Part shown: positions 4,508 through 7,199 of the stretch, in pieces
Layout: each line of letters opens with the position of its first letter
Position numbering within the stretch: position 1 is the first letter of the stretch
Assembly: GCA_963779615.1 (NCBI GenBank)
Contig: CAVZZA010000003.1
Coordinates: 53,237 to 117,236 of the forward strand
Direction of reading: 5' to 3'
Length of the DNA stretch: 64,000 bases
From: an uncultured Nitrososphaeraceae archaeon
Lineage (GTDB): Archaea; Thermoproteota; Nitrososphaeria; Nitrososphaerales; Nitrososphaeraceae
Notes under the pieces: generated by a model
Database searches by the model: none
Seen by the model: only the letters and a program-made list of their open reading frames with translations
What the model was told of the DNA's origin: nothing
Program-made: the position numbers and the translations under genes

Positions 4508-4870
4508 GTGAATTGCATGACAATTATTGCAATTGTTGCATCTATTTTTACTATTATAGCAGGATTTTATCATATAATGATGGTTCCTGCCAACAATTTT
4601 AACGCCACAATTCTTTTTCTAGTTGGAGGTCTAGCCCAAATTTTTTGGGCAATACCCACTATAAGAAATTGGGGAAGAAAATGGGATTGTATAGGAATTG
4701 CTGGAACTATTGCTTTCATAACCATCTGGGCAATAACAAGGATACCTGATAACCCAATAACTGGGAGGGGAGGACCAATAGGCCAAAATGCAATCATTAT
4801 AGAATTATCTCAAATAATGTTTGTTATTCTATTAGTTATCTTAGTTAGTAAAAGAAAAAAATCAAGATAA
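4508..4870 (+). CDS. Small integral membrane protein (about 4 TM); ATG at 4517 is the likelier start
   Basis: Four hydrophobic segments and a basic C-terminal tail. Confidence 0.7.
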   Translation: MNCMTIIAIVASIFTIIAGFYHIMMVPANNFNATILFLVGGLAQIFWAIPTIRNWGRKWDCIGIAGTIAFITIWAITRIPDNPITGRGGPIGQNAIIIELSQIMFVILLVILVSKRKKSR

Positions 4871-4917: not shown

Positions 4918-5142
4918 TTGACAAAAGACAAAACAACTCATCAAACAGTATTTACACAAGAACCAGGTCTTGGGTTAGTGGCTGTTGTTCCTTTTAATTG
5001 GGCTCACAGGCCTGTCAGGTTTGAATTTGAAGGTGAAGTGTTTACAACTAATGCAATTGAGAACAATGGGAGGGCAGAGGTTCGATTTTCATCTCTATCG
5101 GCAGGGGGACCTGTTGAAATTGAACTTTATGAAAACAAGTAA
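4918..5142 (+). CDS. Hypothetical protein (74 aa)
   Basis: Protein-like ORF directly downstream of 4508..4870 on the same strand. Confidence 0.5.
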   Translation: MTKDKTTHQTVFTQEPGLGLVAVVPFNWAHRPVRFEFEGEVFTTNAIENNGRAEVRFSSLSAGGPVEIELYENK

Positions 5143-5839: not shown

Positions 5840-6649
5840 TTAATCAGATAACTTTAACTCCAGATCTTCAATTTTTTTTCTGATTTCTTTTATTTCCAAT
5901 AGTATCTCTTTTTGGGTCGCAGGCTGCATAATTTCATTTTCTAATTGCTTGTATGCCTCTTCGGATTTCCTTACAATCACTGCAACAAATATATTGATAA
6001 CAATAAACGTTCCTATCACTATAAAGCTTATGAAGAAAAGCCCATAAAACGGATTCACAGTTGTTGCAGGAGACATTACCTCAACCCAGCCTTCCAATGT
6101 CAGTATTTGAAACAACGTTAAAACAGACCTCGGCAGTGTGTTCCAATGTTCTGGATCTATATTGTTAAATAAATGAAACCCCGCAATACCGTAGATAAAA
6201 AAAAGAAGAGACAAAAGTAAAAAAATGTTTACCATGCTTGGAATTGACTTAATTATCGTCATAACCACAATTGACATTTCCCTGGATCGATTTGTTAAAC
6301 GGGTAACTCGCAATAGTCTAATCAACCTGGCGACAGTGGAATAACCACCACCAAGGGGCAAAAGTGACAGTACGATAATTGAGAAATCCAATATGTTCCA
6401 TCCGTCTTTAAAGTATTTGAAAACATTTGGGTACGAGGAAACCATCTTTAGTCCGGCCTCAATCATAAAAACAGATAATACGAAAATGTTGATTGACTCA
6501 AAGAGCAAAAAATAGCTGTTAAATTCAGAAATTGTTTCTAACGCCAATACGGCTGCTTGTATCAATATAACTATAGTTATGAAATAATTAAAACTTTTAT
6601 GGTTAACTAACATTTTTACCATTGCAGACATTTTTACCATTGCAGACAT
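5840..6649 (-). CDS. Voltage-gated cation channel, BacNav/6TM ion transporter family
   Basis: S1-S4 sensor with S4 ARLIRLLRVTR (four Arg at every third position), pore helix and filter LTLEGWVE, S6 INIFVAVIV, C-terminal coiled coil. Confidence 0.92.
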   Translation of the reverse strand: MSAMVKMSAMVKMLVNHKSFNYFITIVILIQAAVLALETISEFNSYFLLFESINIFVLSVFMIEAGLKMVSSYPNVFKYFKDGWNILDFSIIVLSLLPLGGGYSTVARLIRLLRVTRLTNRSREMSIVVMTIIKSIPSMVNIFLLLSLLFFIYGIAGFHLFNNIDPEHWNTLPRSVLTLFQILTLEGWVEVMSPATTVNPFYGLFFISFIVIGTFIVINIFVAVIVRKSEEAYKQLENEIMQPATQKEILLEIKEIRKKIEDLELKLSD

Positions 6650-6653
6650 TTTT
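6610..6653. repeat. 18-bp tandem duplication at the start of the channel gene
   Basis: acatttttaccattgcag x2 plus a partial third copy; encodes MSAMVK-MSAMVK-M. Confidence 0.95.
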
Positions 6654-6980
6654 CTCAGTTCTTAATTTTATTTGTATAATATTTTTAACTTTTGAATGGT
6701 TATTCGCTCTTACATCAAAATTATGAACTATAACTGTATCGATAGGAATTATAAGAAGCGTGGCTTTTAAAATTCAATAAAGTTAGATTTATCTTTTGCT
6801 TGTATAATTTATCTGAAAAAAAACCGTTTTGTTTGTTGAAATAGAAGAATTATATGCAAGAGGGGGGAATGAAAATTCCAAAACGCTTGAAGATCAACCT
6901 TCAACAAATCATCATATCCTAACTAAACTGAATTACCTAAAAATAACAAACACAATCCAAAATAATAAAAAAAAGGGTAA

Positions 6981-7199
6981 TTATTCTTTTTTTACGCCTT
7001 CTTTATGTATCCAATGGTACACAATGTTTTCGGCAGTAATCCAATAAGTTTCGGTACCCGCATCCACAATAATTTCCTTTGTATTGTCATCAAACTTTAC
7101 ATTATGTTTGTGCAACTCAAGCTCTTCACCAGAACCCAATCGGATCATTACCTCCCCATTATTTTCTACGCTGTCTTTTATAGATTCATAATTTGCCAT
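6981..7199 (-). CDS. Hypothetical small protein (72 aa)
   Basis: Beta-rich, protein-like ORF (MANYESIKDSVENNGEVMIRL...); better supported than the overlapping + strand ORFs. Confidence 0.65.
   Translation of the reverse strand: MANYESIKDSVENNGEVMIRLGSGEELELHKHNVKFDDNTKEIIVDAGTETYWITAENIVYHWIHKEGVKKE

Follow-up and report, generated by a model that had tools for sequence, protein, structure and literature searches.

A complete ion channel gene occupies positions 5840 to 6649 on the minus strand of the window, by which we mean the whole 64,000-nucleotide stretch of DNA analyzed here. It encodes a protein of 269 amino acids (aa) and ends with a TAA stop codon at 5840-5842. The ORF, a match to Pfam Ion_trans (PF00520; E 6.6e-49; profile positions 1-239 of 241) and direct reading of the sequence all agreed with the earlier note, which had described here a complete 6TM channel with four S4 arginines and the filter TLEGWVE. 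A single-domain, BacNav-like architecture of a 6TM voltage-gated cation channel, with an arginine at every third S4 residue, was supported by the PF00520 match, the invariance of these arginines, the helices of an AF2 model and Foldseek. This is the only Ion_trans gene in the host genome (3.17 Mb, 92.5% complete). A K+ channel reading was dropped, as the protein contains no TVGYG-type filter.

According to the alignment and the AF2 model, the voltage-sensor module S1-S4 comprises residues 18-119 (6293..6598, minus strand). Its counter-charges E38 (S1), E64 (S2) and D88 (S3) were invariant in a 51-sequence alignment of the family, and so were the gating-charge arginines R108, R111, R114 and R117 (6299..6328, minus strand), which are spaced every three residues in an S4 segment reading VARLIRLLRVTRLTNRSR. 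Beyond this ladder, the channel has two extra arginines, R121 and R123. The S4-S5 linker starts with T-N-R-S-R-E (residues 119-124; 6278..6295, minus strand), which the alignment revealed to be specific to ammonia-oxidizing archaea (AOA): all AOA channels have T-N-R-S-(K/R)-E where other BacNavs and the AnclNavs (ancestor-like BacNavs) have 'xxVPxLR' with a Pro. E124 was invariant in the 51 sequences. This AOA-type linker start puts extra charges directly after S4.

The pore module S5-P1-filter-P2-S6, delimited in the same way, spans residues 136-228 and includes Asn219 of S6 (5966..6244, minus strand); its pore loop reads LTLFQILTLEGWVEVM. The selectivity filter T184-L-E186-G187-W-V189-E190 (6080..6100, minus strand) is encoded by ACA TTG GAA GGC TGG GTT GAG. 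T184, W188 and N219 were invariant in the 51-sequence alignment, and L185, E186 and G187 were conserved in at least 90% of it. A cytoplasmic neck and a C-terminal coiled coil (residues 229-269; 5843..5965, minus strand; alignment and AF2) complete the protein, and the helical tail formed by residues 246-268 aligned with BacNav coiled coils. The C-terminal coiled coil would be the tetramerization bundle typical of BacNavs.

The AF2 model, built from 51 homologues, had a mean pLDDT of 73, reaching about 90 in the pore, and contained helices for S1-S4, S4-S5/S5, P1, P2, S6 and the C terminus. With this model, Foldseek retrieved NaChBac, NavAb, CavAb and NavMs (probability 1.0; TM 0.64-0.78). The best single-domain matches in a PDB sequence search were NaChBac (6vwx; E 2e-42), followed by NavMs and NavAb, and the best per-domain matches were T-type Cav3 channels.

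At its 5' end, the gene carries a perfect 18-bp tandem duplication (6614..6649, minus strand) in which ATGTCTGCAATGGTAAAA occurs twice and encodes MSAMVK MSAMVK. The unit is single in most orthologues (263 aa) and is present as two diverged copies in 94%-identical metagenomic relatives (L067/P0002 and P0003). The duplicated N terminus offers two candidate translation starts, Met1 and Met7. Upstream, an A/T-rich, TATA-like element, TTAAAAATATTATA, is located 26-39 nt from the ATG (6675..6688, minus strand). The 45 nt preceding the ATG (window 6650-6694, compared to positions 105-149 of L067) differed by one base only, although dS of the gene was 0.37. Given this near identity, we take the A/T-rich stretch to be a conserved, predicted archaeal promoter with a short leader. 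A scan for sigma-70 promoters and intrinsic terminators yielded 3 matches versus 6.5 expected and carries no information for an archaeon.

The same contig harbors an archaeal amoA gene (E 1.6e-117), and the nearest homologues of the channel are from Nitrosocosmicus. From these two sequence matches, we assign the host to the Nitrosocosmicus-type AOA, in line with the ammonia-oxidizing archaeal host named in the earlier note. The channel gene is solitary, with intergenic regions on both sides and unrelated neighbors. It is flanked by three small ORFs without a Pfam match, of 120 aa (4508-4870, plus strand), 74 aa (4918-5142, plus strand) and 72 aa (6981-7199, minus strand), which were not found beside the channel in other Nitrosocosmicus loci. 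The other genes around it encode a BFN-domain protein, an ABC-2 transporter pair, an MFS transporter and an SDR. An operon partner or a Ca2+-related neighbor was rejected, since none was present in the flanks or conserved across about ten Nitrosocosmicus loci; the sole recurring neighbor was the ABC pair, about 5 kb away, in two of them.

Elsewhere in the host genome we detected one antiporter of the Na_Ca_ex family, and therefore a Ca2+ extrusion route is predicted to be present. Neither archaellin nor a match to the EF-hand pair domain (EF-hand_7) was found in this genome. A link to motility, as speculated for CavMr, the Ca2+ channel of Meiothermus ruber, was ruled out for a host whose genome lacks archaellin. 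With no EF-hand pair domain, archaellin or conserved neighbor, a downstream Ca2+ effector is not evident from the sequence.

The survey of AOA genomes that the earlier note had suggested revealed a patchy distribution. The channel had matches in 34 of 401 genomes of the class, belonging to 7 of 80 genera. In the host's own genus, Nitrosocosmicus, it was present in 14 of 18 genomes. Nine Nitrosotenuis genomes had a match, no other genus of the second family (f2) being represented, and so did three Nitrososphaera genomes, one of them with a fragment containing an internal stop (the three genus labels used for counting are based on sequence identity to named references). Since the remaining 367 of the 401 genomes had no match, the channel is dispensable. 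We conclude that AOA, mostly those from terrestrial and freshwater habitats, have it as an optional gene.

A comparison of the window gene to its closest relative (L067; 91% nucleotide identity) gave a dN/dS of 0.08, and thus the channel gene is under strong purifying selection. Metatranscriptome contigs from four soil and rhizosphere sets covered positions 6058-6637 at 97-99.5% identity, and the ten listed differences were all located at third codon positions, nine of them being synonymous. The gene is therefore probably transcribed by the host or a sister species, with the reservation that metatranscriptome libraries can carry DNA. Such contigs also covered a region at about 6998-7100, within the small ORF at 6981-7199.

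Among the 121 best database homologues, TLEGWVE was the most frequent filter (69 sequences), followed by TLEGWIE (20) and TLEGWVD (19). The AOA clade also contains natural filter variants, present in the homologues P0005/P0026, P0074/P0085, P0108 and P0092 and at the loci L057 and L062 (G084). They are TLDNWVD, TLEDWVD, TLEEWVE and TLEEWSN, of which TLEDWVD corresponds to the filter of the CavMr-G4D mutant. In a further variant, TLANWTD, the key Glu is lost. It was found in a complete genome of the genus Nitrosocosmicus (L057; G103:C1:2149759-2150493), in a copy with a TGA codon before the coiled coil. A second channel copy in the same genome (G103:C1:936365-937794) is fragmented, with 53-74% identity in its fragments, and is interrupted by several in-frame stops. 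Being a pseudogene, it indicates ongoing loss of the channel in some Nitrosocosmicus lineages.

To place the protein, we calculated a tree (IQ-TREE; LG+C20+F+G4) from the window protein, 43 sequences of the PMC7041947 set and 18 homologues from metagenomes. A phylogeny had been proposed in the earlier note as a check, with placement among ordinary BacNavs as the unfavorable outcome. The window channel did not group with the Na+-selective BacNavs, i.e., the Bacillus BacNav clade (support 100/95) or the NavAb-like BacNav clade (100/99), but was located inside the AnclNav clade (98/98). By its sequence, the channel thus classifies as an AnclNav. CavMr and NavPp (Plesiocystis pacifica) were found together in one AnclNav sub-branch (10 sequences; 99/98) from which the AOA clade was excluded, and the window channel belonged to another (27 sequences; 99/97). 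The AOA channels, including that of the window, were monophyletic (22 sequences; 100/100), and their stem was long (1.13 substitutions per site). In a second tree with bacterial loci, the ORFs of L017 and L021 were out of frame, so that the root was distorted and the resolution reduced. Only two results were accepted from it, both of them recovered again: the AOA clade (100/100) and its position apart from the CavMr/NavPp group.

Within the AOA clade, Nitrosotenuis and Nitrosocosmicus grouped without Nitrososphaera (92/92). We do not claim a transfer, since according to the AU test the Nitrososphaeraceae copies could still be monophyletic (p = 0.13). The nearest bacterial relatives with TLEGWVE (40-44% identity) were from Burkholderiales, other Betaproteobacteria and Dehalococcoidia metagenome-assembled genomes, in a list biased by the LEGWVEVM search pattern. 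The view of a bacterial sister group is also biased by the search of representative sequences, in which the top 150 were dominated by four-domain channels of eukaryotes, which accumulate score over their domains.

The two AnclNav sub-branches differ in the P2-S6 loop (L6). In the CavMr/NavPp branch, 47-51 residues separate the filter Trp from the S6 Asn motif, often with two cysteines. In the other branch, including the AOA channels, this spacing is 29-30 residues and contains no cysteine. The short, cysteine-free spacing was present in 117 of 119 scorable sequences among the 121 best homologues (query included). With 29 residues and no Cys, versus 47-49 residues and two Cys in CavMr and NavPp, the window channel does not have the long-L6 scaffold, which the characterized members have in common and which may or may not be essential. 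Currents have been recorded from two AnclNavs, both of them with the long loop. The channels of T. turnerae and H. elongata are outside the long-loop sub-branch; the spacing is short in T. turnerae and was not scorable in H. elongata.

That AnclNavs occur 'even in archaea' was stated by Shimomura et al. in 2020 (PMC7041947). Figure 1-source data 1 of that work lists "Candidatus Nitrosocosmicus exaquare" and "Candidatus Nitrosotenuis aquarius," both with the filter TLEGWVE, and "Candidatus Nitrososphaera gargensis" with TLEGWID, but these archaeal channels were neither expressed nor discussed beyond the quoted phrase. Their proteins are 73%, 62% and 49% identical to the window channel, respectively, and belong to the same AOA clade (100/100). 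All four share the short P2-S6 loop, an NRSKE-type S4-S5 start and the coiled coil, and the filters of N. exaquare and N. aquarius are identical to that of the window. The differences are the species and the six-residue N-terminal tandem duplication. We conclude that the window channel is new as a species-level member of a sequence family already cataloged in 2020. Therefore, the earlier note, which had described electrical or Ca2+ signaling in AOA as essentially unstudied, overstated the novelty as far as sequences are concerned; a full-text literature search retrieved no functional study of an AOA or archaeal AnclNav channel.

CavMr is the reference for a Ca2+-selective AnclNav. The filters that the earlier note had given for comparison proved accurate: that of CavMr is 183-TLEGWVD-189 (PMC7041947), and the sequence set of the same work gives TLESWAS for NaChBac and TLESWSM for NavAb. 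The window channel resembles CavMr in being a single-domain channel of the 6TM homotetramer type; both have four S4 arginines and a coiled coil at the C terminus. Their filters agree from position 1 to position 6 (TLEGWV) and differ at position 7 only, where each has an acidic residue (E in the window channel, D in CavMr). The CavMr-type determinants are thus present as G187 (position 4) and V189 (position 6). In contrast, the overall identity is 36%, the host is archaeal, the sub-branch is another one, the S4-S5 linker lacks the conserved Pro, and the two-Cys L6 extension of roughly 18-20 residues is missing (29 versus 47 residues from Trp to Asn). Hence, the closeness to a native Ca2+ channel that the earlier note had claimed applies to the filter (6 of 7 positions, with Gly4 and Val6), but not to the protein as a whole.

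The other known channels are less similar in the filter. NavPp, which is Na+ permeable and Ca2+ blocked, shares the AnclNav group and the architecture, but its filter is TLEDWTD (Asp4, Thr6), its L6 loop is long, and its identity to the window channel is 32%. NaChBac, NavAb and NavMs share the fold (TM 0.64-0.78), the short L6 length class and about 32% identity, but they are Na+ selective, belong to separate clades, and have the filters TLESWAS or TLESWSM. The window filter has two acidic residues, versus one in TLESWSM and TLESWAS, which agrees with the AnclNav pattern T-L/F-E-[G/D]-W-x-[D/E] of one or two acidic residues in excess of the canonical BacNavs, and it deviates from the canonical TLESW(A/S)(S/M) at positions 4, 6 and 7. 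The same seven-residue motif TLEGWVE is found in domain I of the eukaryotic T-type channel Cav3.3, which reads FQVITLEGWVEIM; domain I of Cav3.1 and Cav3.2 reads ...TLEGWVDIM. However, T-type channels are 24TM proteins with four domains and an asymmetric EEDD, while four like subunits of the window channel would give an EEEE ring.

Published electrophysiology links this filter to selectivity (PMC7041947). The PCa/PNa of CavMr is 218 (Table 1), and it was lowered to 11.9 by G4S, to 7.7 by G4D, to 40 by V6T and to 144 by D7M, and NavPp equipped with the CavMr filter changed from 0.3 to 215. These values identified Gly4 as the key determinant of the Ca2+ selectivity of CavMr, Val6 as auxiliary and position 7 as dispensable. 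Since CavMr D7M still had a PCa/PNa of 144, the exchange of D for E at position 7 in the window channel should be harmless. Mutants of CavMr and NavPp that had a filter in common behaved alike. Furthermore, one-domain channels in which Gly follows the filter Glu/Asp were classed as Ca2+ selective (PMC10120453). The presence of TLEGWVE in domain I of Cav3.3 lends the rule further independent support.

Based on this comparison, we propose the following mechanism. Subunits would assemble via the pore module and the C-terminal coiled coil into a homotetrameric voltage-gated AnclNav cation channel. Depolarization would move the four S4 arginines, and the S4-S5 linker would then open the S6 gate. 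Cations would pass a filter made of four TLEGWVE copies, with a ring of Glu186 together with Gly187 (position 4) and Val189 (position 6). Most likely, the channel would thus be a voltage-gated route for Ca2+ into a non-motile Nitrosocosmicus of soil. What we firmly conclude is that the locus harbors an intact, constrained and probably transcribed single-domain channel gene of the AnclNav group, whose product is a predicted voltage-gated cation channel; assembly as a tetramer, gating by voltage, selectivity for Ca2+ and any role in physiology we infer.

Judging from the sequence, we lean narrowly toward a Ca2+-selective, voltage-gated channel, because the combination of Gly4 and Val6 that makes CavMr Ca2+ selective is present and conserved, and because, to date, selectivity within the AnclNavs could be predicted from the filter sequence in two backbones. 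The chance that a channel on the short-loop AnclNav scaffold would be truly Ca2+ selective (PCa/PNa above 100) we put slightly below even. The long AOA stem, the unusual S4-S5 linker, the lack of a pointer to a Ca2+ target, and the absence in 367 of 401 genomes count against the Ca2+ reading, as does the fact that no current is on record from any AOA channel or short-loop AnclNav. The last point also favors the main alternative, a voltage-gated channel that is non-selective or prefers Na+, possibly being Ca2+ blocked like NavPp, if the short-loop backbone alters the filter geometry. We regard this outcome as rather unlikely but to be taken seriously. It is favored by the position in a sub-branch other than that of CavMr, the 36% identity, the linker without the conserved Pro, the long stem branch and the absence of the Cys-pair L6 loop found in both characterized AnclNavs; in CavMr, the disulfide-bearing loop was considered a possible contributor to selectivity (PMC10120453). 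Moreover, the effect of filter transplantation depends on the backbone: NavAb with the CavMr filter (NavAb-Mr) and the reverse swap (CavMr-Ab) were both silent, and the filters TLEDWSD and TLEDWAD made NavAb and NaChBac, but not NavPp, Ca2+ selective (PMC7041947). Homologues are also labeled 'voltage-gated sodium channel' in databases, which reflects automatic naming only. On the other hand, Gly4 together with Val6 was enough to convert NavPp, the selectivity of mutants followed the filter in both backbones, and Gly4 is strongly conserved in the AOA clade, all of which argues against this alternative.

The fold, the identity of about 32% to NaChBac and NavAb, and the shared short P2-S6 length class could also suggest a common Na+-selective BacNav, similar to NaChBac and NavAb, in which a Ser-to-Gly change in the filter is tolerated. 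We consider this the least probable explanation, since the tree separates the window channel from both canonical groups (98/98), the filter differs from TLESWSM and TLESWAS at three positions, and CavMr G4S lost monovalent discrimination without gaining Na+ selectivity (PMC7041947). Hardly more probable is a decaying or silent gene, a dispensable passenger that provides no conducting channel. Its patchy distribution (34 of 401 genomes) and the shortened TLANWTD copy and stop-ridden fragments in the complete Nitrosocosmicus genome would be in line with this, and in the insect cell experiments of 2020, in which two of four bacterial AnclNav genes gave currents, the related genes of T. turnerae and H. 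elongata gave none (PMC7041947). However, the window copy is intact and has a dN/dS of 0.08, its gating charges and filter are conserved, as is the region upstream, and there is evidence of transcripts.

The Ca2+-selective reading, which we prefer, would have several consequences. To our knowledge, CavMr, a bacterial protein, is the only native prokaryotic voltage-gated Ca2+ channel characterized. If the reading is true, the Archaea would gain their first known functional voltage-gated Ca2+ channel, more compact than any other native Cav, and the Gly4/Val6 filter rule would hold without the extracellular L6 loop of CavMr. Being compact and without the loop, the channels of the AOA clade offer a natural experiment on whether Gly4 and Val6 in an EEEE filter are enough for Ca2+ selectivity, and the natural variants TLEDWVD, TLDNWVD and TLEEWVE of this clade mirror laboratory mutants. 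As the family was cataloged in 2020, the remaining gain lies in functional measurement, for which the window channel is a worthwhile patch-clamp target. For the organism, a Ca2+-selective channel would mean that a non-motile ammonia oxidizer couples its membrane potential, presumably set by ammonia-driven respiration, to Ca2+ entry, with no effector evident. Among globally important nitrifiers, voltage-dependent entry of Ca2+ would thereby be indicated for the first time.
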